Positions 6,496 through 32,136 of a stretch of DNA of 32,276 bases are shown one piece after another. Within the stretch, counting starts at the first letter, position 1. Every line of letters begins with the position of its first letter. The DNA lies in IMG/VR virus record IMGVR_UViG_2703718849_000002, positions 1 to 32,276 of that record. One strand, given 5' to 3'. Under the pieces are notes generated by a model. The model did not search any database. It saw only the letters and a list, made by a program, of their open reading frames with translations, and was not told the origin of the DNA. Position numbers and translations under genes: made by a program. Source of the stretch: a virus. Lineage: Duplodnaviria > Heunggongvirae > Uroviricota > Caudoviricetes.

Positions 6496-6664
6496 CCCAT
6501 CCCAATCCCTCCAATACCAGAAAGAAAGCGTCGAGCGGGCTTTAACGTGCGCTAACTGCGGTCAGAAGCTGCATGTGCTGGAAGTTCACGTGTGTGAGCA
6601 CTGCTGCGCAGAGCTGATGAGTGATCCGAATAGCTCAATGTACGAGGAAGAAGACGATGAATGA
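6488..6664 (+). CDS. ninF: NinF protein
   Basis: 58 aa, MLSPSQSLQYQKESVERALTCANCGQKLHVLEVHVCEHCCAELMSD matches lambda NinF as remembered; not in the supplied track. Confidence 0.8.
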   Translation: MLSPSQSLQYQKESVERALTCANCGQKLHVLEVHVCEHCCAELMSDPNSSMYEEEDDE

Positions 6665-7379
6665 GTTAATAAATGGCAATGCCATCAAAATGACAAGCAT
6701 TGAAATCGCTGAGTTGGTGGGTAAGCGTCATGACAATGTGAAACGTACCATCGAAACGCTGGCTAAAAATGGTGTTATCCGGCTTCCTCAAATTGAGGTT
6801 TCCGAAAGAATCAATAACTTAGGGTTCAATGTTCAGTACGAGCATTACGTCTTCGAAGGCGAACAAGGCAAGCGAGATAGTATTGTTGTTGTTGCCCAGT
6901 TGTCGCCAGAGTTCACCGCTCGCCTTGTTGACCGCTGGCGAGATCTTGAAGAAGCTGCGGTTAATATCCCCAAAACGCTACCGGAAGCGTTGCGCCTTGC
7001 TGCTGATCTTGCCGAGAAGAAAATGCAACTGGAAAACCAGCTCGCAATTGCCGCACCTAAAGTTGAGTTTGCCGATCGCGTTGGCGAGGCCAGCGGAATT
7101 TTGATTGGAAACTTTGCAAAGGTTGTTGGAATTGGTCCAAACAAACTGTTTGCGTGGATGCGCGATCACAAAATCCTTATTGCTTCAGGTTCCCGGCGCA
7201 ATGTGCCAATGCAGGAATATATGGATCGCGGCTATTTCACAGTGAAAGAAACAGCGGTCAACACAAATCACGGGATACAGATATCGTTCACCACAAAAAT
7301 CACCGGGCGTGGTCAACAGTGGCTGACCAGAAAGCTGCTCGATAACGGAATGCTGAAAGTAACAGGGGAGGCTGCTTAA
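6657..7379 (+). CDS. Phage antirepressor / regulatory protein (Rha-like N-terminal domain with KilA-C/Ant-type C-terminal domain)
   Basis: Start taken at MNELINGNAIK (6657); domain pattern recalled from Rha/Ant family proteins. Confidence 0.6.
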   Translation: MNELINGNAIKMTSIEIAELVGKRHDNVKRTIETLAKNGVIRLPQIEVSERINNLGFNVQYEHYVFEGEQGKRDSIVVVAQLSPEFTARLVDRWRDLEEAAVNIPKTLPEALRLAADLAEKKMQLENQLAIAAPKVEFADRVGEASGILIGNFAKVVGIGPNKLFAWMRDHKILIASGSRRNVPMQEYMDRGYFTVKETAVNTNHGIQISFTTKITGRGQQWLTRKLLDNGMLKVTGEAA

Positions 7380-7669
7380 TGGCTAATCTACGCAAAGAAG
7401 CACGCGGCAGAGAATGCCAGGTACGTATTTACGGCGTATGCAATGGCAATCCTGAAACTACAGTTCTGGCACATTACCGGATGGCTGGAATTTGCGGAAC
7501 GGGAATGAAGCCTGACGACCTGATCGGCGCATGGGCTTGTAGCGCGTGTCACGATGAAATCGACCGACGCACCCATAATCTCGACAACAAAGACGCCAGA
7601 CTTTACCACCTCGAAGGCGTGATCAGGACGCAGGCGATACTGTTGAAGGAGGGGAAGATTAAGCCATGA
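7379..7669 (+). CDS. YbcO-like protein (DUF1364; putative nuclease with Cys-rich metal site)
   Basis: 96 aa; ARGRECQVRIYGVCNGNPETTVLAH…CSACHDEIDRR closely resembles E. coli DLP12 YbcO as remembered. Confidence 0.7.
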   Translation: MANLRKEARGRECQVRIYGVCNGNPETTVLAHYRMAGICGTGMKPDDLIGAWACSACHDEIDRRTHNLDNKDARLYHLEGVIRTQAILLKEGKIKP

Positions 7670-9590: not shown

Positions 9591-10050
9591 TCAACGTAAG
9601 GCGTTCCTCGATATGCTGGCGTGGTCAGAGGGAACTGATAACGGACGGCAGAAAACCAGAAATCATGGTTATGACGTCATTGTTGGCGGAGAGCTATTCA
9701 CTGATTACTCCGATCACCCTCGCAAACTTGTCACGCTAAACCCCAAACTCAAATCAACAGCAGCCGGACGTTACCAGCTTCTTTCCCGTTGGTGGGATGC
9801 CTATCGTAAGCAGCTTGGCCTGAAAGACTTCTCTCCGAAAAGCCAGGACGCTGTGGCACTGCAACAGATTAAAGAGCGTGGCGCTTTACCGATGATTGAT
9901 CGCGGTGATATCCGTCAGGCAATCGACCGTTGCAGCAATATCTGGGCTTCACTGCCGGGGGCTGGTTATGGTCAGTTCGAGCATAAGGCTGACAGCCTGA
10001 TTGCAAAATTCAAAGAAGCAGGCGGAACGGTCAGAGAGATTGAGGTATGA
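9574..10050 (+). CDS. R: Endolysin R (lytic transglycosylase, lambda type)
   Basis: 158 aa, matches lambda R as remembered. Confidence 0.9.
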
Positions 10051-10505
10051 GCAGAGTAGCCGCGATTATCTCCGCTCTGGTTATCTGCATCATCGTCTGC
10101 CTGTCATGGGCTGTTAATCATTACCGTGATAACGCAATCGCCTACAAAGAGCAGCGCGATAACAAGGCCAGTGAACTGGAGAAGGCGAACGCCACCATCG
10201 CTGACATGCGGAAGCGTCAACGTGATGTAGCAGAACTCGACGCAAGATACACAAAGGAGCTTGCTGATGCTAACGCGACTATCGAAAGTCTCCGTGCTGA
10301 TGTTTCTGCTGGGCGTAAGCGCCTGCAAGTCGCCGCCACCTGTGCAAAGTCAACGACCGGAGCCAGCGGCATGGGCGATGGAGAAAGCCCAGGACTTACA
10401 GCAGATGCTGAACTCAATTATTACCGTCTCCGAAGTGGAATCGACAGGATAACCGCGCAGGTTAACTACTTGCAGGAATACATCAGGACGCAATGCCTTC
10501 GATGA
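10047..10505 (+). CDS. Rz: Rz i-spanin (inner-membrane component)
   Basis: 152 aa, N-terminal TM helix and coiled coil; lambda Rz-like. Confidence 0.85.
10261..10452 (+). CDS. Rz1: Rz1 o-spanin lipoprotein, embedded in the +1 frame of Rz
   Basis: Signal peptide with lipobox (LLGVSAC) followed by a Pro-rich mature region; fully nested in Rz. Confidence 0.75.
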
Positions 10506-10678
10506 TAGCGATAATTTTACTCATCATCCTTCACATCTGGCTCTGTAGACAGGATGGTGATCACTTCTGGAGTGAATCCAGATTAAACATCTCATTGCTG
10601 ATGCTTGATATTGAGCATCTTGCGCGCGGTAAGGGGCTGCGTTGAGATAAGAGCCAGTCATTACAAATACTAGGATTT

Positions 10679-10704
10679 AGCCTCGCATTTGCGGGGCTTT
10701 TTTA
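10679..10704 (+). terminator. Rho-independent terminator downstream of the lysis cassette
   Basis: Stem AGCCTCGC/GCGGGGCT with 4-nt loop followed by TTTTTT. Confidence 0.6.
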
Positions 10705-10848
10705 CATCTGCAGTAAACCGCGCATCGCAGCGCGTAACAATCCCGAGTCTTTCAGAAAGCTGAGCCTGAGAACTGCCGTATATGGTGGCGACCATCTCGG
10801 GGCGGCTTTTCTGTGCGAACAGGCTCATCTTTCTAAAAGGTAAACGCT

Positions 10849-11334
10849 ATGAATAACTTTGTTGAAATTACCTCAAGAATTGGTCGCATGTACCAAGATT
10901 TTCTTATAAGTGGAAAGGGGTCTGGCGACATCATAGAGGAAATTGACAAGCTAAGTGCAGAGCTGAGAAGGAATGGGTGTGTTAATTCTATCTTTTTTGA
11001 AACTTTGCTAAAGCAAGGCTTCATGTTTGACATGATTAATTACAACAAAGTCGCACCCAGTGCTTCGCAAAAATCATATGTGTACGTTCTGCATGCTGAA
11101 GATAGTGGGCTAACAAAAATAGGGTTTAGTCGCAGGGTTAATAAACGGATTTCAGAGATATCTCGCATGAGTGGTGGGAAGCTAAATCTAATTGCAAAGA
11201 TTCCGGCCGATAGAGAGCTTGAAACCAAATTGCACCAAAAATATTACAACTATAGGTCGCACGGGGAGTGGTTTAGTCTCAATCGTTGTCATTTGAAAGA
11301 GCTAAAAGAAATGCCTGGTAACGAACTGAAATAA
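10849..11334 (+). CDS. Moron gene: T5orf172/MUG113-type GIY-YIG-like domain protein (C-terminal half) with an N-terminal domain of unknown function
   Basis: 161 aa; C-terminal SYVYVL…KIGFSRR…RISE…H…EWF pattern typical of T5orf172 domains; visibly lower G+C than neighbours; flanked by non-coding DNA. Confidence 0.6.
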   Translation: MNNFVEITSRIGRMYQDFLISGKGSGDIIEEIDKLSAELRRNGCVNSIFFETLLKQGFMFDMINYNKVAPSASQKSYVYVLHAEDSGLTKIGFSRRVNKRISEISRMSGGKLNLIAKIPADRELETKLHQKYYNYRSHGEWFSLNRCHLKELKEMPGNELK

Positions 11335-11581
11335 TCCCCGGACTCACCAATTAACGGCAGTACCGCGAAACAACCCAAGCCAGTAAGTGGGGAAATAACA
11401 CTGGCAGCCACTGAAAGATGAACCTCCTGCCTTATGGCAAAAAAGATTCTTTGTGGTGGCGGACTGATGGAAAGACATCGGTTATTGCAGAGGCCATTCA
11501 ATGAGTGGTCTCGACAATGGCTTATACCCTACACGGGATAACTTAACTGATATCCCTTTTAACGGATAAACGGAGCCAACA

Positions 11582-11824
11582 ATGGCAGAGATTATTCCCA
11601 TGACTGAAGAACAGAAATTCCAGTTAGAGATTTACAAGCTGGTCATGAACCAGAACGCAGCCGCAGAGGAAGCATTTCAGTTCATTGGCACTGACGAACT
11701 GAAGCTTGAGCTATTCAAAATTCACTTCCAGTCAGGCGGCGCTAATTCAGATATCACGATCCGCACATTTGAAGCGGTACGTAAATCGAAGGAAGCGTTA
11801 GACCTGTTCACCACCGGAGCATAA
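11582..11824 (+). CDS. Hypothetical small protein immediately upstream of terS
   Basis: 80-aa ORF with SD (ACGGAGCC), ends 2 nt before the terS ATG. Confidence 0.5.
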   Translation: MAEIIPMTEEQKFQLEIYKLVMNQNAAAEEAFQFIGTDELKLELFKIHFQSGGANSDITIRTFEAVRKSKEALDLFTTGA

Positions 11825-11826
11825 AC

Positions 11827-12267
11827 ATGGCGCGCCCAACAAAGTATCAAGAGGCGTATGCCGAACAGGCACGCAAACTGTGCTTGCTGGGCTACACCGA
11901 TGCAGAGCTTGCTGATTTCTTCGAAGTTAGTGAGTCAACTATTAACAAGTGGAAGCTTGATTATCCTAAGTTTTCGGAGTCCGTAAAAAAGGGTAAGGCC
12001 GTCGCTGATGCAGAAGTTAGTGATCGTCTTTATCAACGCGCTATGGGCTTCGTGGCTCCAGACATCGATATTCGTGTTATTGAAAACAGAATTGTCGAAA
12101 CTCCGCTTGAGAAGTATTACCCGCCTGATACAACAGCTGCCATCTTCTGGCTTAAGAACCGACAGAAGGATAAATGGCGCGACAAGGTTGATCACGAGCT
12201 AACAGGCAAAGACGGCGGCGCAATTCAGATTGAAACATCACCGATGAGCACTCTATTCGGAAAATGA
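11827..12267 (+). CDS. terS: Terminase small subunit (Sf6 gp1-like, headful/pac type)
   Basis: 146 aa; C-terminal GKDGGAIQIETSPMSTLFGK matches the Sf6 small terminase as remembered; HTH-like N-terminal segment. Confidence 0.75.
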   Translation: MARPTKYQEAYAEQARKLCLLGYTDAELADFFEVSESTINKWKLDYPKFSESVKKGKAVADAEVSDRLYQRAMGFVAPDIDIRVIENRIVETPLEKYYPPDTTAAIFWLKNRQKDKWRDKVDHELTGKDGGAIQIETSPMSTLFGK

Positions 12268-13676
12268 CCTCGATTAATCCTATCTTTGAACCGTTCATTG
12301 AGGCGCATCGCTACAAAGTCGCCAAAGGCGGTCGAGGTAGCGGTAAGTCATGGGCAATTGCGAGGCTGCTTGTTGAAGCGGCGCGTCGGCAGCCTGTGCG
12401 TATTCTTTGCGCTCGTGAACTGCAAAACAGTATCAGCGATTCGGTAATCCGGTTGCTTGAAGATACCATAGAGCGGGAAGGGTATTCGGCTGAGTTTGAA
12501 ATTCAGCGTTCAATGATTCGTCATCTCGGAACGAATGCTGAATTCATGTTCTATGGCATCAAAAACAACCCGACGAAGATTAAATCGCTCGAAGGCATTG
12601 ATATCTGCTGGGTGGAAGAAGCGGAAGCGGTAACGAAGGAATCATGGGATATCCTGATACCAACCATCCGCAAGCCGTTTTCCGAAATATGGGTGAGCTT
12701 TAACCCTAAGAACATCCTCGACGATACCTATCAGCGATTCGTCGTAAATCCTCCCGATGATATTTGTCTGCTGACGGTGAACTACACCGACAACCCGCAC
12801 TTTCCTGAAGTTCTCCGTCTGGAGATGGAAGAGTGTAAACGCAGAAACCCGACACTGTATCGTCACATCTGGCTTGGTGAGCCGGTAAGCGCAAGTGATA
12901 TGGCAATCATCAAACGTGAATGGCTTGAAGCCGCAACCGATGCGCACAAGAAACTCGGATGGAAAGCGAAAGGTGCGGTTGTTTCTGCGCATGACCCGTC
13001 AGATACAGGGCCAGATGCTAAAGGTTACGCATCGCGTCACGGTTCGGTGGTTAAGCGCATTGCCGAAGGTCTGCTGATGGACATCAACGAGGGTGCTGAC
13101 TGGGCTACTTCGCTGGCGATTGAAGACGGCGCTGACCATTACCTGTGGGACGGTGATGGCGTCGGTGCGGGCCTACGCAGACAGACAACGGAAGCGTTCT
13201 CCGGCAAGAAAATCACCGCCACGATGTTCAAGGGAAGTGAATCGCCATTCGATGAAGATGCGCCGTATCAGGCCGGAGCATGGGCTGATGAAGTCGTACA
13301 GGGTGACAACGTTCGCACTATTGGTGATGTGTTCCGCAATAAGCGAGCGCAATTCTATTACGCGCTGGCTGACAGGCTGTATCTGACATATCGGGCGGTT
13401 GTCCACGGTGAGTATGCAGACCCCGACGACATGCTGAGTTTCGACAAAGAAGCGATAGGCGAGAAGATGCTGGAGAAGCTGTTTGCAGAACTGACGCAGA
13501 TTCAGCGCAAATTCAATAACAACGGGAAGCTGGAGCTAATGACTAAGGTCGAAATGAAGCAGAAGCTCGGTATTCCATCTCCTAACCTGGCTGATGCGCT
13601 GATGATGTGTATGCATTGCCCGGCATTGGTCCGCGAAGAAACAGAAATATACGTTCCCTCATCCTCCGGTTGGTAA
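12264..13676 (+). CDS. terL: Terminase large subunit (ATPase/nuclease)
   Basis: 470 aa; Walker A KGGRGSGKS; position between terS and portal. Confidence 0.9.
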   Translation: MTSINPIFEPFIEAHRYKVAKGGRGSGKSWAIARLLVEAARRQPVRILCARELQNSISDSVIRLLEDTIEREGYSAEFEIQRSMIRHLGTNAEFMFYGIKNNPTKIKSLEGIDICWVEEAEAVTKESWDILIPTIRKPFSEIWVSFNPKNILDDTYQRFVVNPPDDICLLTVNYTDNPHFPEVLRLEMEECKRRNPTLYRHIWLGEPVSASDMAIIKREWLEAATDAHKKLGWKAKGAVVSAHDPSDTGPDAKGYASRHGSVVKRIAEGLLMDINEGADWATSLAIEDGADHYLWDGDGVGAGLRRQTTEAFSGKKITATMFKGSESPFDEDAPYQAGAWADEVVQGDNVRTIGDVFRNKRAQFYYALADRLYLTYRAVVHGEYADPDDMLSFDKEAIGEKMLEKLFAELTQIQRKFNNNGKLELMTKVEMKQKLGIPSPNLADALMMCMHCPALVREETEIYVPSSSGW

Positions 13677-25869: not shown

Positions 25870-28071
25870 ATGCCAGATATCACCGCAAATGTTGTGGTCA
25901 GCATGCCTTCGCAACTCTTCACTATGGCGCGTTCTTTTAAAGCCGTAGCCAATGGTAAAATTTATATCGGAAAAATTGACACTGACCCGGTAAATCCTGA
26001 AAACCAGATTCAGATTTATGTGGAAAACGAAGACGGCTCTCACGTTCCTGTATCCCAGCCAATCATCATTAACGCCGCTGGTTACCCTGTATATAACGGA
26101 CAGATTGCCAAATTCGTAACTGTGCAAGGCCATTCTATGGCTGTGTACGATGCGTATGGAGCGCGGCAATTCTATTTTCCTAATGTGCTGAAGTATGACC
26201 CTGATCAACTTGAACAGCGATTATCACTGCCTACAGCACCTGAGATTATAGGGGTATATCCATCAGGTAAATTAGCAGATGTATTAAATGATGTAACCCC
26301 GGAGCAATTCGGAGCTATCGGTGATGGGGTTGCTGACGATACGCAGGCATTAAAGGCTATGTTTAAATACATCAATGACATGCCGATTTCATTCACAGAC
26401 ACAGCAACAGAACTTAACCCCCACCTGGATGTGGCAGCAAAACGTGTTGTTTTGCGCGGCCTGTACATGCACACAGAGACAATCTTTATCCCTTCTGGGG
26501 TGCAGATTTTCCAGCCTGGATACTCTTATTTCCGCCGAAACGTGCAGCAAGGTTTTTACTTCAACCCTCCTTCTGGCGAAGGTAACATGGCTGCTGTAAG
26601 CACCTGTGTTTATTTGAAGTCTGGTAATACCTGGTATCTTAATTCTGACCCAATGTTACTTCCACATGGTGCACAGATAGATGACGGCACTATCCGCACA
26701 GGAGCCAGACACATTGATATTGAGAATCTTAGTATCATTACCAAGCCTGGAACCTTGCTTGGTTTACGCTGGCTAGGTGCAGCAGGATGCACAACTCGCA
26801 ATCTAAGTATTGGTGAGAACACACCAAGCAGCACAGCATCAACCGCCAGAATTCCTAAGGTCGGTATGCTTCACAGTATTGCTTGGGGCAGTGTTCACAC
26901 AACACCTAAGATTCTATACAAAACTCAAGGTGCTGTTTTCTACGAGCAAAACGGTGGTTCTGAGGTGAAAAACGCTTACATTGCTCGTCTTGGTCAGGAT
27001 TCAACTTATTCAGAACAGGTAATTTATAAACCGGAAGATTTTGACGAAACCGGCGATGTCGCAATTACACAGTACGGGCGCAGTTCTGTGCAGTTCAGGT
27101 ATTGTGTAACAGAAACATGCTCATTCATGTATGTTAACCAGGGTGATGCAGGAAGTAACGGCGGACTTAAGGTTGACGGTTGTCACATGGAAGCCACGGG
27201 TGGTAAGGCGAAACATTGTTTCTATATTATCAACTCGGACGCTGACATCCGTCTAAATGGTCTTTTCATTCAAGACGAAAGTATAGCAAACAGTTCAGTG
27301 GTCTACGTCAAGAGCTGCGTTAAGGGTCGTAGTGTTGTAGATATTCACGGTTACATGATGTTCAACGGTTACAGGTTCCTTGACGGCATAAACTCTGGAG
27401 CTGTAGTCAACATACGAAATCCCAACAATGGCCAGTTCCAGTATGGAAAACTTGGGAAATGGGATTTAGTTAATGAAGTTACAGGCATTTCACCTTCAAC
27501 GTTATACATCGACCCAGTTAACGGTAATGATGAAAATTGGGGTCTCAATGGAGCGCGTGGTCTAAAATCTTTGAAACATGCTGCCAAAATTTGCAGAATG
27601 CTTGAAATAAACGACGTTTACACCAACGCAGGAAGTATAAATTTAACGGAAGATACAGAGTTACCATCAGCCACAATTCGTGGCCTAGGCGGTATTGTGT
27701 GCAATGCTGATGGTAGTTTGATTGCATTGCGTAAAACGAATGTAAATCTGACGTTGAATGGAGGTGTAACAAGCCCTGCCGGGTATCACTTGATCAAAGT
27801 TGCCACCACTGAGCCAGTAAATGTAGTTTCCACTGGAGACATGACAACTACAACATCTGCTAATATCTTTCTGTTTCAAGCAAACGGTAATGTTGAATGG
27901 ACGCATAGGGCCGGTGGTGGCCTAGCCTGCTATCGATATGCCGGGACGCAGTCTGTATCGTTCTCGGCAGTGATTGGTTTGAATATCAGGTCTACAACCA
28001 GACCAGCTATAGATTCGACACCTGTATCTGGTAATGTTGTTACTAAATACTCTTCTATTTTGAACTCTTAA
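25870..28071 (+). CDS. Tailspike protein: conserved P22/Sf6-type N-terminal head-binding domain fused to a divergent beta-helix receptor-binding domain
   Basis: Start at [10 protein letters not shown] (25870); first ~110 aa resemble P22/Sf6 tailspike N-termini; the remainder carries a [15 protein letters not shown] pectate-lyase-like motif. Confidence 0.9.
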
Positions 28072-28073
28072 AA

Positions 28074-28097
28074 ATATAGACCCAGTAGGGTCTATAT
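28074..28097. terminator. Bidirectional terminator hairpin between convergent tailspike and gtrC
   Basis: Perfect 10-bp inverted repeat ATATAGACCC/GGGTCTATAT with 4-nt loop, A/T-flanked on both sides. Confidence 0.7.
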
Positions 28098-28101
28098 AAA
28101 T

Positions 28102-29514
28102 TTAACATTTATGTTCAAAGTCTATTACAAAAACATCACCTTTTCTCATTAGGGTAAGTATTTTATTCTTCTTTATAATTTCGAATGAACACATTTCAGA
28201 TATCACTTTATTGCGCATGCTTTTTTCAGGGTATGATTTGGAGCTTGCTATTCCATTAACCCTTAAGTAACTAACACCCCATGACCATGAATTAGACATG
28301 TAATTTGGAGATAATTTATATATTATAGGAAACTTTTGTGCTAGCTCATAGTATACCGGACTTCTTGGCATAGACCCATTAATTACAATTAATGGATCTT
28401 CTACTTTTAAAACATCACCCTGCACCAAGTTTATAACCTGAATCCTTCTTTGCTCATCAGCTTTTAGTGCAGATGCATATGAAGAGCAGAGCACAAAAGA
28501 AAAAAACAAAAGTATTGTGTACGACAACTTGATTAATTTATTAACTCTAATTCCGATAAAAATTAAAGGGATGTACAGCAACAGAGATATACCAACCGAT
28601 GTCCTGGGTGTAAACCATGGATCTGAGAGAATTAAATTAGAGCCAGGAGATATGATTATTGCCAAAATCGTGAAGAATACGGCAACAACTAAAGCGGAAT
28701 GGTTTTTTCTGTAAATAAAAAAGTTATGCAACACTGAAATAGACAAGATTGATATTAATGGAAGTAAATAGTAAAAATAACCACTGTTAAATAGTGGTAG
28801 TAAGATTATACTTATGAATTTCTCATAGTTATTAACTAATCCATGAAAAAAATGATCTATGCCAATTACTTCATCTCTTCCGTTGAAGTTTAGTGTCAAA
28901 TAATAAGACAGAAACTTGTATAATACAATAGACAATACAAAACTTAATAATGAGATAGATAAAAATTTTAGTGATTCAATTAATGAGTTTGATCCTTTGG
29001 TGACTGAATTTGCTGCTATAATTAATGCTGCTACTGGATATAAAAAAATACTGTTTTGATAAATAAAAAGAGAGATTAATAGAAGTGATGTGGATGAAAT
29101 TAAAAATGCAACATTATTCCCCTTGAAAATCAAAGGGATAAATACCAACAGGATTGATAATGATATTGGAAGAGAATCGAATCTGTATGATAAAATCTCA
29201 ATTGCCATTGGCGATGTTGCAATTATAGATGAAGATAATATCAATATATCATCATCTAAATTCATCGACTTAGAAAACAAATAGCCTACATATGTTAAAG
29301 TAATCACTGAAATTATTTGAGAAAATGGAAAAAAATCAGTAATAGGCGTGCCGAAAGTGATGATATTATAAATAAGGTCTGATAATGGTCTTCCGTCAAT
29401 AGCCCAACCATATCCCAAGTGAGATCTATTTATATCATCAACATAGTAATTACCACCAAGTATTATTGGCAAAATAAATGCCAGCGGTATCATGAGTAAA
29501 TATTTATTTTTCAT
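28102..29514 (-). CDS. gtrC: Serotype-specific O-antigen glucosyltransferase (GtrC / Gtr type-specific), polytopic membrane protein
   Basis: 470 aa with many hydrophobic segments; third gene of a gtrA-gtrB operon; strongly AT-rich. Confidence 0.7.
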
Positions 29515-30430
29515 TTTTAATATTCCTTATTATATATCGCGGCCTGTTTTTTGTTTCTATGTATATTCTTCCAATATACTCGCCAAGAACACCAATTCCT
29601 ATCAGCTGTACACCGCCAAGAAACAGAATTGATACCAAAATTGATGGGTAGCCACGAACAGGATTGCCAAACGCGACAGTATCAAAAATAAGCCACGTCC
29701 CATACAGAAACGACAGCCCTGCCACGAACAATCCTATATATGTCCACATGCGCAATGGAAAAGTTGAGAAACTGGTGATTCCTTCAAGCGCGAGATTCCA
29801 CAGCTTCCAGCCATTGAACTTGCTGTCACCAGCTATGCGTTCTGCGCGAGCATACTCGACGACGTCAGTCTTTCCACCAACCCAGCTAAGTATGCCTTTC
29901 ATAAACAGGTTGCGTTCAGGCATTGATTTAATGTTCTCAACCACTTCACGCGACATAAGCCGAAAGTCTCCGACGTTTTCCTCAATCTTCGGATTGCTTA
30001 TTTTATTGTGGAGCTTATAGAACCACTCAGCCGTTTTTCGCTTCAGTCTGCCATCCGTTGAGCGGTCAGATCGTTTAGCAAGCACCATATCAGCGCCTGC
30101 CTGCCATTTTTCAATCAGTTGAGGTATTACCTCAATCGGGTCTTGCAGGTCAACATCAATAGGAATAACAGCATCGCCTGTTGCATGGTCTAACCCTGCA
30201 AACAATGCTGGTTCTTTACCAAAGTTGCGCGTAAATGACAGCGGAACAACTAGCGGATCAGAAACAGCCAGAGCGTAAATTATTGACTCTGTAGAGTCTT
30301 TGCTGCCGTCATTTATGAAAACAATTTCCACCTCATATGGCTTCAACTCTTCGAATTCACGTACCGTTTTATAAAAAATTGGTATCGCTTCTTCTTCATT
30401 GAAGACAGGAACTACAAGAGATATCTTCAT
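29504..30430 (-). CDS. gtrB: Bactoprenol glucosyltransferase GtrB (GT2 family)
   Basis: 308 aa; GT2 motifs (VVPVFNEEE…, …NDGSKD…, DVDLQDP) and two C-terminal TM helices. Confidence 0.9.
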
Positions 30431-30789
30431 TTCGCATCCCTAAAGACAATGAACTTTGAATATACGAAACCGCACACCAGGCTGATGGCGGAGAAAGTGA
30501 TAAGGGTTAGCATCGGGGGAAGTGCGCATCTATCAGCAGCCCATCCAACAGTTGCACTCAGTGTTCCCATGAACCCGACATATAACATGTAGCGCATCGT
30601 TGTGGTCGATGCTTTGAATGTGAATCTTGCATTCGCGAAGAAGCTAAAACTCACAGCCACAACGAAACCTGCGAAGTTTGCCAGAGCCTGATTGGTATGC
30701 GCGGCATAGATACATACACCAAAAACCACCCAGTGTATAAGTGTGTTCAGCACACCAATCGAGGTGTACTTTGCAAATAGCTTTAACAT
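30427..30789 (-). CDS. gtrA: GtrA flippase for undecaprenyl-phosphate glucose
   Basis: 120-aa four-TM protein, highly similar to GtrA of serotype-converting phages as remembered. Confidence 0.9.
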
Positions 30790-30942: not shown

Positions 30943-32136
30943 TCACTCCACCTTTTCATCAATCCAATCCGCCCACCACTGCATCATTTCTCTGCGCTTA
31001 TCGAGATACTGAGCATGGTTGTAAATACCGCGCACAGATCCGCCGTTGGCATGTGCAAGTTGCACTTCAATGGCGTCGGCAGGCCATTCGTGCTCGTTCA
31101 TAATCGTGCTGAATTCATGCCTGAATCCGTGACCGCTTTCCAGACCTTCATAGCCGATTTGTTTGATCACAAGCAGTACCGCGTTCTCGCAGATTGGCTT
31201 CTTCTTATCGTTGCGCCCGGCAAAAACAAACTCTGAGACTGGTTTGGTTATTGAGCTTAGCGTAGTGAGAAGTTCAACCACCTGGTCTGACATAGGAACC
31301 ACATGAATTTTGCGGCCCTTCATCACACTGGCGTCGATAGTGATAATCCTGTTTTCAAAATCGACGTTCTTCCATTGCATGGAACGAAGCTCTTTCGTTC
31401 TTAGGGCTGTGTAGCGTAAAACTTTGGTCGCAATGAGCGATACGATACTTCCTGAAAATGTTGCAAGTGCTTTGTTGAATGCCGGGATCTGGTCTGCTGG
31501 AAGAAACGGGAAGTTCTTCTTGCGGTATCCCTTCATGGCGTCAGCAAGGTCAGGTGCCGGGTTATATTTAGCCCTACCAGTGACAATAGCGTAACGGAAA
31601 ACCTCGCCGCATCTTCTGCGGGCTTTGTTGGCTCGCTCCATTGCACCGCGATCTTCAAATCTGCGGATTACTTCCAGCAGTTGCATCGGCTCAATATCCT
31701 GAATTTCAAGGCCGCCAATGATAGGTAAAATGTCGTCGTCAAACATTTTTGCAAGTTCATTTGCATAGCCTACTGACCAGACTTGCTTCTTGTGCTCGTA
31801 CCATTCCTTGTAAATGGCGCTAAAGGAGTTGTTGTTAGACGAAGCCTTTTTCGCTTTTACCGGATCGATGCCAACCGAGATGTCTTTCCTCGCGGTCCAT
31901 ACTTTATCCCTTGCCTCCTGCAAAGTCATAAGCGGATATTTTCCGACGGTCAGGATTTTCTCCTTACCGTCAATCTTGTAGCGAAGCTGCCATACCTTTT
32001 TCCCTGACACAGGGACATAAAGGTACAGGCCATTACCATCGAGCAGGCGGTATGGTTTTTCTTTCGGCTTTGCTGCTTCAATCTGCTTAACGGTGAGCAT
32101 GGGTAAAAATCCGGTGGGTAAAATTATTTTATCCAC
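30943..32136 (-). CDS. int: Tyrosine integrase (P4-like family with N-terminal arm-binding DUF4102-type domain)
   Basis: 397 aa; N-terminal …YRLLDGNGLYLYV…, catalytic region with …HGFRHEF… and C-terminal tyrosine motif; adjacent to a tRNA 3' end. Confidence 0.9.
   Translation of the reverse strand: MDKIILPTGFLPMLTVKQIEAAKPKEKPYRLLDGNGLYLYVPVSGKKVWQLRYKIDGKEKILTVGKYPLMTLQEARDKVWTARKDISVGIDPVKAKKASSNNNSFSAIYKEWYEHKKQVWSVGYANELAKMFDDDILPIIGGLEIQDIEPMQLLEVIRRFEDRGAMERANKARRRCGEVFRYAIVTGRAKYNPAPDLADAMKGYRKKNFPFLPADQIPAFNKALATFSGSIVSLIATKVLRYTALRTKELRSMQWKNVDFENRIITIDASVMKGRKIHVVPMSDQVVELLTTLSSITKPVSEFVFAGRNDKKKPICENAVLLVIKQIGYEGLESGHGFRHEFSTIMNEHEWPADAIEVQLAHANGGSVRGIYNHAQYLDKRREMMQWWADWIDEKVE

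Follow-up and report, generated by a model that had tools for sequence, protein, structure and literature searches.

A putative T5orf172-type nuclease gene with an HkbL-type N-terminal domain occupies a swappable cargo position in the late operon of P22-like phages

The closest characterised relative of the gene described here is that of Odn (origin-directed; gp88) from the Vibrio phage ICP1, a phage accessory gene that adjoins an antirepressor-type gene and codes for an N-terminal targeting domain followed by a C-terminal T5orf172 domain (PMC8263062). The targeting domain of Odn is a RepA_N domain copied from its satellite target, and the target is the PLE replication origin. Next come the T5orf172 homing endonucleases found in ICP1, in T5-like phages and in further phages, which are sporadically distributed and often located near terminase genes and at genetic-exchange boundaries (Barth, Dunham, Seed 2023, PMC10448857). 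Here we describe a gene of the same nuclease family in a stretch of 32,276 nucleotides (positions 1 to 32,276 of the IMG/VR virus record IMGVR_UViG_2703718849_000002, in the following the window), which according to its gene content is a P22-like (Lederbergvirus-type) prophage. The gene is an open reading frame (ORF) for a protein of 161 amino acids (aa) and constitutes one allele of a swappable cargo position between the lysis and packaging genes of the late operon. A preliminary description of positions 10,506 to 11,581 had regarded these 1076 bp as one AT-rich insertion, a moron with a nuclease-like gene; our analysis supports the gene, but not the unit.

The ORF and its two domains are arranged as follows:

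10849-11334, plus strand: 161-aa ORF with ATG start, coding for an HkbL-type N-terminal domain and a predicted T5orf172/MUG113 C-terminal domain; this is gene 68 of epsilon34, gene 64 of g341c and RefSeq WP_001058931.1
10849-11052, plus strand: predicted N-terminal three-helix domain (aa 1-68), homologous to free-standing 85-aa HkbL proteins (phrog_875)
11077-11310, plus strand: predicted T5orf172/MUG113 (GIY-YIG superfamily) domain (aa 77-154), with key codons for Y79 at 11083-11085, K90-I-G92 at 11116-11124, R100 at 11146-11148 and E125 at 11221-11223

Both the ORF and the lengths of its flanks, 343 and 247 bp, agree with the preliminary description. The gene is an accessory gene of P22-like phages that has already been deposited and annotated, i.e. 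the gene itself is a re-sighting, and it is located in a region already known to vary among P22-like and lambdoid phages. From 10300 to 11900 the window is 98% identical to the Salmonella phages epsilon34, g341c and NM-3, and the ORF shares 99.6-100% nucleotide identity with epsilon34 gene 68 and with its E. coli copies, which are named 'GIY-YIG nuclease family protein' in RefSeq (e.g. WP_001058931.1). The protein matches PHROG 4284 along its full length (expectation value, E, 1e-75). In epsilon34 the gene has the same position after Rz/Rz1 and gp67 and is preceded by the same terminator and leader, whereas the downstream backbone differs, with gp70 and gp71 there and a CUS-3-type terS in the window. 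The epsilon34 genome paper does not discuss gene 68 (PMC2629481), and no published function for it was present in the literature found.

The C-terminal half of the protein was proposed to be T5orf172/MUG113-like because of a YVYVL…KIGFS…R…E…H…EWF pattern. This motif is indeed present, and over aa 77-154 the protein scores above the Pfam gathering cut-offs of both MUG113 (PF13455, E 4e-13, 50.1 bits, cut-off 22.3) and T5orf172 (PF10544, E 1e-9, 39.2 bits, cut-off 20). An exhaustive profile search resulted in 17,130 cluster representatives at E <=0.001, nearly all of which match the C-terminal domain only. An alignment of 67 sequences shows Y79, K90, I91, G92, R100, E125, G139, W141 and F142 as invariant residues and H129, R136, H138 and E140 as almost invariant ones. 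AlphaFold2 predicts a GIY-YIG-type beta-beta-alpha-beta-alpha fold, the predicted local distance difference test score (pLDDT) being 91.5 for the whole protein and 94.8 for aa 70-161, where the predicted template modelling score is 0.85. Eco29kI, UvrC and T4 EndoII are found in the lower part of the match list. Thus, based on the profile matches, the predicted fold and the conserved catalytic-type residues we assign the C-terminal half to the T5orf172/MUG113 domains of the GIY-YIG superfamily, with catalytic-type Tyr, Arg and Glu residues that appear intact; every computationally testable feature of T5orf172 proteins can be found, and DNA cleavage is predicted.

A profile-sequence alignment to Odn (hhalign probability 79%, E 1.6e-5; identity of the nuclease domains ~24%) places Y79 on Y127, K90 on K138, G92 on G140, R100 on R148 and E125 on E180, i.e. 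the Tyr, Lys-x-Gly, Arg and Glu positions coincide, and the E180A exchange in Odn abolishes cleavage in vitro and in vivo (PMC8263062). Canonical GIY-YIG nucleases such as I-TevI, Slx1/HIGLE, the N-terminal domain of UvrC, Eco29kI and PD-T4-3 contain YIG as second motif, whereas the ORF protein, like other T5orf172 proteins, contains KIG, and its C-terminal R-x-H-G-E-W-F motif is specific to its own family. The protein has no significant sequence-level match to any chain in the PDB: a profile search of PDB sequences gave no match with one alignment (A2) and only T4 EndoII with another (A4), which is insignificant (E 1.2) though in register.

The N-terminal ~70 aa had remained unassigned in the preliminary description and are not covered by any Pfam model, but as judged from PHROG profiles and pairwise comparison, which together establish the link, they form an HkbL-type domain. 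The region matches phrog_875 (E 1.4e-6 over aa 2-60) and, in BLASTP, HkbL of phage HK620 (33% identity, E 6e-12, aa 5-59); reciprocally, HkbL matches phrog_4284 at E 4e-6, and an alignment of 12 sequences, joining the N-terminal domain with HkbL proteins, is gapless. A tblastn search of phage genomes with the 75-aa N-domain is too insensitive for such distances and found identical copies only. AlphaFold2 predicts helices at residues 3-21, 25-41 and 47-68 with a pLDDT of ~90, connected to the nuclease-type domain by a linker of lower confidence. The HkbL proteins, e.g. HkbL of HK620, gp61 of HK97 and gp60 of mEp235 (all phrog_875), are homologous to aa 5-59 and occupy the same genomic slot behind the same leader, but they are free-standing proteins of ~85 aa, are encoded directly after a KilA-N or Rha gene and contain a basic C-terminal tail where the fusion protein runs into T5orf172. 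Among the 120 of 146 matches listed from a domain-profile database search, essentially all are such free-standing ~85-aa proteins of enterobacterial prophages without Pfam annotation; the few longer proteins among them look like gene-calling run-ons and were rejected as further fusion partners.

In all independent contexts studied (8/8) the free-standing HkbL gene starts directly at, or within, the 3' end of a KilA-N or Rha gene, and the upstream partner is of the KilA-N+ORF11CD3, KilA-N+P63C or Rha+ANT type. The eight contexts are HK620, mEp235, Klebsiella phage RAH1, Rouxiella, Trabulsiella and three Enterobacter prophages, with the following loci:

HkbL loci, at four different genomic positions: hkbL of HK620 at L004 2373-2630; the others in L010, L011 and L027-L031

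In RAH1 the gene is located in a tail-region island, in Rouxiella in a P22-type immI island and in Trabulsiella just before Nu1. HkbL and a KilA-N or Rha gene thus look like a conserved, uncharacterised two-gene module. T5orf172 itself was reportedly defined by Iyer, Koonin and Aravind in 2002 within a set of shuffled domains that includes KilA-N, Rha, Bro-N, ORF11CD3 and P63C. Similar neighbourhoods are found for two-domain homologs of the ORF protein: in L016 the gene begins within the end of a Rha gene, with two Arc genes and a Bro-N gene upstream, and in L015 a KilA-N+P63C gene follows directly, with Arc and Bro-N genes near. In ICP1 (L019 7828-9961) Odn (ORF88) is divergent from a Bro-N/ANT 'anti-repressor', ORF89, and its small downstream partner, ORF90, an arrangement that seems to echo the association of T5orf172 with antirepressors in enterobacterial phages.

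The upstream neighbour of the window ORF is, in contrast to the HkbL-style adjacency, the leader described below, and the nearest Rha-type gene is 3.5 kb away:

6621-7379, plus strand: intact gene in the nin region for an antirepressor-type protein with Rha-N and ANT/KilAC domains (Pfam ANT, E 8e-33; Phage_pRha, E 2e-8)

This Rha-ANT protein is 44% identical (E 6e-45) to the Rha+ANT protein encoded directly before the Rouxiella HkbL gene and may be considered a candidate partner in trans for the HkbL-type domain. A gene for a putative nuclease of the YbcO family (7379-7669, plus strand) lies directly 3' of it, and in E. coli NZ_CP026085 a KilAC-domain antirepressor gene at the same nin-region place is frameshifted.

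The boundaries of the cassette were mapped by BLAST of window positions 10001-12400 against nine relatives. The elements around the ORF are:

10493-10645, plus strand: 50-aa ORF (epsilon34 gp67 / Sf6 gp65) with a hydrophobic N-terminus, overlapping the end of Rz; phrog_11822, E 9e-38, full length
10679-10708, plus strand: predicted intrinsic terminator (terminator scan), hairpin 10679-10698 with an 8-bp stem (6 G-C) and a 4-nt loop, then TTTTTT
10703-10848, plus strand: leader common to phages with different slot genes, with a long hairpin at 10748-10840
11332-11479, plus strand: downstream linker (segment D), common to Rha, KilA-N, Sf6-type, Huey and HF4s phages, with 98.5-98.6% identity irrespective of cargo
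11480, no strand: junction of a second variable slot (BLAST breakpoints 11479 and 11481), empty in the window
11582-11824, plus strand: DUF2560 / P22 Orf80 gene (PF10834, E 3e-42; phrog_571), conserved backbone between cassette and terS
11827-12267, plus strand: terminase small subunit gene terS, start of the packaging module (phrog_309, E 2e-67; 98.4% identical to CUS-3 terS)

Homology to two Rha phages, Sf101 and CUS-3, and to the KilA-N phage HK620 extends to 10853, five bases into the ORF, and resumes at 11332, the ORF stop codon, in Sf101 and CUS-3 and at 11345 in HK620. Relative to these phages the allele-specific segment is thus the 478-bp ORF body, 10854-11331, and the slot holds Rha in Sf101 and CUS-3 and the KilA-N gene hkbK plus hkbL in HK620. 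Also P22 rha (orf201) is an occupant of this slot, with homology resuming at the same point. Huey and HF4s retain the sequence through the terminator, i.e. to 10702, and contain other genes thereafter. Sf6 and 611R6 diverge at 10667, have a short distinct linker without genes and rejoin at 11345, so that relative to Sf6-type phages the extra unit is ~10668-11344 and comprises terminator, leader and ORF. Regardless of cargo the linker segments are 97-99% identical.

The flanks of the ORF had been considered non-coding, but they comprise the 50-aa ORF, the structured leader at 10703-10848 and a labelled gene remnant. The 50-aa ORF is annotated as coding sequence in the records of epsilon34, Sf101 and Sf6 and in E. 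coli RefSeq records; segment A, which holds it, is 97-99% identical whatever the cargo and hence belongs to the shared backbone outside the variable cassette. The remnant is a feature of the epsilon34 record said to resemble the N-terminus of ST64T orf118, equivalent to ~11434-11517, i.e. it starts in segment D and continues past 11479; a 35-aa ORF (11434-11541, plus strand) overlaps this label. Two antisense ORFs, 10670-10828 and 10524-10661 (both minus strand), are unsupported by any family match and probably do not represent genes. The second slot, at 11480, is occupied by a gp66-type gene in Sf6, Huey and 611R6. In public annotations slot genes of Huey (L007 1928-2428 and 2663-3043) are labelled 'anti-CRISPR protein', which is doubtful; their best PHROG families, 872 and 322, are both without known function. 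The gene is located between the lysis genes and terS as described previously, but not directly before terS, since the DUF2560/Orf80 gene intervenes. A 'HNH homing endonuclease' label in some relatives (611R6, L008 2603-3043) belongs to the terS gene and is an apparent mis-annotation; it provides no evidence for a homing endonuclease at this locus.

The low G+C content, which had been ascribed to the whole region, is confined to the ORF. Its first 120 nt (39.2%) and the ORF as a whole (39.1%; third codon positions 40%) are indeed AT-rich compared to the window mean of 47.0% (standard deviation 4.7 in 486-bp windows, just 5.3% of which are as low as the ORF), the gtrABC region (27726-29836) being the sole other part of the window with such a composition. 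Leader (50.8%) and segment D (49.7%) are not low, and segment A (43.8%) is only slightly so. The boundaries contradict the idea of a single inserted 1076-bp unit, as does the finding that 2691 of 5426 complete E. coli genomes contain parts of the flanks.

The ORF body, in turn, is present in 58 of these 5426 genomes, always on the chromosome and in 55 of the 58 at >=99% identity, and in 5 of 337 matching phage records (three phages). The comparison of the Rz-terS junction suggested in the preliminary description thus reveals presence/absence as well as allelic polymorphism, i.e. an accessory and not a conserved core gene. The ORF bodies of Salmonella phages and of an E. coli prophage share 99.6-100% identity, whereas the adjoining Rz genes share only 85-92%, which fits a recent horizontal spread of the cassette. 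All complete copies in the viral-contig set (5/5) are intact 161-aa ORFs; a single 75-aa copy might be taken for a truncated gene, but lies at a contig end, so that no sign of gene decay was found. Of nine gene contexts analysed six are between lysis and terminase genes and three in tail-region islands. Two-domain homologs with ~61% identity (L012, L013) are located between Rz and terS of other lambdoid lineages, more distant ones either between unrelated lysis and terminase modules (L021, L024) or in tail-region islands (L015, L016, L020).

This distribution is compatible with a free-standing homing endonuclease, whose N-terminal domain would recognise a site near the Rz-terS junction of phages lacking the gene, whereupon the T5orf172 domain would cut and repair would copy the gene in. 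Sporadic occurrence among close relatives, near-identity of the ORF across divergent backbones, its low G+C content, the intactness of all complete copies and of the catalytic-type residues, and the order of the domains, with the targeting domain first and T5orf172 last as in the ICP1 T5orf172 homing endonucleases and Odn, would all be expected, and a terminase gene is found in 35% of the gene neighbourhoods of T5orf172 homing endonucleases (PMC10448857). However, 87% of the phage enzymes contain at least one zinc finger (CapR, DUF723 or DUF4397) (PMC10448857), whereas in the much smaller 161-aa protein neither these nor a helix-turn-helix or other known DNA-binding domain was found. Its N-terminal domain is predicted to be a bundle of long helices, the free-standing form of which partners KilA-N and Rha genes. 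Moreover, in place of empty sites the other alleles mostly contain different genes, exchanged precisely at the ORF boundaries behind a shared leader, and distant homologs are found in antirepressor-type islands controlled by Arc repressors. We thus consider homing unlikely.

The sequence upstream of the ORF bears on its expression. The rho-independent terminator noted previously is confirmed by the hairpin and the following T-run and is annotated as such in the epsilon34 record and at the equivalent place in mEp235; Huey and HF4s have kept it despite their other cargo. In the leader AAAAGG is located eight bases 5' of the start codon, and the base of the long hairpin is formed by UCUUU (10748-10752) and the ribosome-binding site AAAGG (10836-10840). 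Further inside, a G+C stem (10775-10779 with 10802-10806) is followed by TTTTCTGTG (10807-10815) and, judged from this sequence, looks like a second terminator. The RNA from 10668 to 10860 folds at -68 kcal/mol, as compared to -52.5 ± 4.0 kcal/mol for shuffled sequences (z -3.84; 0/200 as stable). The 146-bp leader is 97% identical in Rha phages, 84% in HK620, 93% in L012 and 70% in Duffyella and is more conserved than the cargo, e.g. the L012 leader is 93% identical but the L012 protein only 61%.

When both invariant leader ends were used to search viral contigs, at least 120 loci were obtained. Among the 120 loci listed two have no ORF behind the leader, and in all others it is followed by a Rha-, KilA-N- or ANT-type gene or a T5orf172 gene: 85 loci contain a Rha-type, 19 a KilA-N-type and 6 a T5orf172 gene, and in another 8 the encoded protein has a Rha-, ANT- or KilA-N-like N-terminus. 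All 27 unique leader variants (27/27) fold into the same hairpin with the ribosome-binding site paired; in their alignment 92.3% of the cells are paired, as compared to 43-58% with slid partners, and compensatory changes occur at 4 pairs (11 cells), a value reached by 0/500 shuffles. No Rfam family matches the leader.

The common leader also bears on the possibility that the protein is a regulator rather than a nuclease, i.e. an equivalent of the Rha, KilA-N and ANT alleles that binds DNA or a repressor, for instance as antirepressor-like inducer of other prophages or satellites, with T5orf172 as binding module. Slot, leader and regulation are those of the Rha, KilA-N and ANT genes, in immI-like islands the gene is accompanied by Arc, Bro-N, Rha and KilA-N genes, and T5orf172 was first predicted to be DNA-binding because it is found together with Bro-N and KilA-N (summarised in PMC8096241). 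Yet the catalytic-type Tyr, Arg and Glu residues are invariant in 67 homologs, with the Glu aligning to the Odn residue essential for cleavage, and the positional alleles in the late operon, P22 Rha and HkbK of HK620 (KilA-N + ORF11CD3), which are DNA-binding or antirepressor-type and not nuclease-type proteins, show no sequence similarity to the ORF protein. A purely regulatory role therefore appears rather improbable.

Another suggestion of the preliminary description was a prophage-encoded defence gene, in which case the nuclease would be expressed in the lysogen and act in defence or superinfection exclusion against incoming phage DNA. A scan for the sigma-70 consensus detected no promoter-like site between the upstream terminator and the ORF, and the one weak site from 10400 to 11900, fewer than in shuffled sequence, is upstream of the terminator. 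The gene is on the late strand in 9/9 contexts. Taken together, this argues against autonomous expression in the lysogen and thus against a classical prophage defence gene. The location behind terminator-like hairpins with a sequestered ribosome-binding site points in the same direction, and the slot-mate P22 rha has been described as a late-operon gene under the control of IHF, the misregulation of which harms phage growth (PMC4936722). In PADLOC-DB v2 the protein has no significant match to a described anti-phage defence system, only weak ones to the candidate family PDC-S57 (E 4e-4, nuclease domain only) and to PDC-M64B (E 0.03), and NCBIfam gave no match. Because of this expression context and the lack of a convincing PADLOC match lysogen defence is the explanation we favour least and regard as very unlikely.

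The same observations qualify the term moron. Lambda bor is an accessory gene between Rz and the packaging genes, i.e. at an equivalent map position, but it is on the opposite strand, has its own promoter that is active in the lysogen and encodes a lipoprotein. The ORF, in contrast, is on the late strand without evident promoter and codes for a predicted nuclease-type product. It shares with morons that it is an extra gene, absent from the slot of Sf6 and 611R6, and that its composition is atypical, but it is not a 1.1-kb block and no promoter of its own was found in the sigma-70 scan.

Based on these findings we tentatively suggest, as a possibility somewhat short of even, that the gene encodes a late-expressed, tightly gated, partner-targeted nuclease for competition between phages. 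As it has no evident promoter of its own and is located behind one or two terminators, it would be transcribed only via Q-antiterminated late transcription, i.e. during lytic growth, and as the leader hairpin pairs with the ribosome-binding site, translation would be held down. The HkbL-type domain may then target or dock the protein, probably through a DNA-binding partner of the KilA-N or Rha type, the candidate in this phage being the Rha-ANT protein, so that the T5orf172 domain could nick or cut DNA. Rather than protecting the lysogen, the protein would most likely be used in competition between mobile elements, against satellites, resident prophages or relatives infecting the same cell. 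Odn would be similar in its layout, but has an annotated promoter of its own.

Several points weigh against this suggestion. The docking role is a guess, as it is based on gene linkage and as structure searches with the N-terminal domain gave only generic helical-bundle matches. No KilA-N or Rha gene is adjacent to the ORF in the window or to its homologs in L012, L013, L021 and L024, thus any partner would act in trans or be unneeded. Nuclease activity is deduced from conserved residues and from one tested relative, at the domain identity and alignment probability given above. The leader variants are closely related sequences, their compensatory changes stem mostly from one lineage and the basal stem was fixed by the search pattern, and the promoter scan covered the sigma-70 consensus only.

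As to the remainder of the window, the gene order is repressor, cII, replication and nin genes, Q, holin, endolysin, Rz/Rz1 and the region studied here, followed by DUF2560/Orf80, terS, terL, portal and other virion genes, Mnt, tailspike, gtrABC and integrase. A lone Arc/Mnt-type repressor gene (25488-25781, minus strand) is located just ahead of the tailspike gene; since it is not accompanied by an ant gene, the 'ant moron' (immI region) seems to be cut down to mnt in this phage. A gtrA/gtrB/gtrC-type cluster for O-antigen glucosylation (28102-30789, minus strand) adjoins the integrase (30943-32136) and tailspike (25822-28071) genes, the three forming a serotype-conversion module like that of epsilon34, and 27726-29836 is the most AT-rich stretch of the window, with a G+C content as low as 26.7%. 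The region studied here is also contained in two records labelled DH5alpha, NZ_CP026085.1 and NZ_CM135829.1, the former of which holds a full P22-like prophage and matches with the same identity (99.2%) and bit score as E. coli W (NC_017664 / NC_017635). As such a prophage is not expected in K-12 derivatives, these strains may be mislabelled.

None of the papers found mentions the relationship to HkbL, the strict pairing of HkbL genes with KilA-N or Rha genes or the structured, cargo-specific leader. The leader locus is very common, with its flanks in about half of the complete E. coli genomes, and the N-terminal domain ties a predicted nuclease to the uncharacterised HkbL proteins and thereby to the KilA-N and Rha genes with which these are strictly paired. 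Going further, and in a generalisation that is quite unlikely to hold as a whole, the HkbL-type domain might be a dedicated module that docks effectors onto KilA-N, Rha and ANT proteins, its fusion to T5orf172 being a partner-guided nuclease and the split counterpart of Bro-N/KilA-N-T5orf172 proteins, and terminator plus leader sequestering the ribosome-binding site would mark a polymorphic and tightly gated 'late warfare' locus of lambdoid phages, the alleles of which, coding either for antirepressor-type proteins or for the nuclease, act against co-resident prophages, satellites or co-infecting relatives. If the proposed function is correct, a T5orf172 nuclease from temperate enterobacterial phages would join the examples from Vibrio phage ICP1, and should the nuclease prove active and partner-guided, the locus would provide a simple system for the role that the enigmatic Rha, KilA-N and Bro genes may have late in infection.

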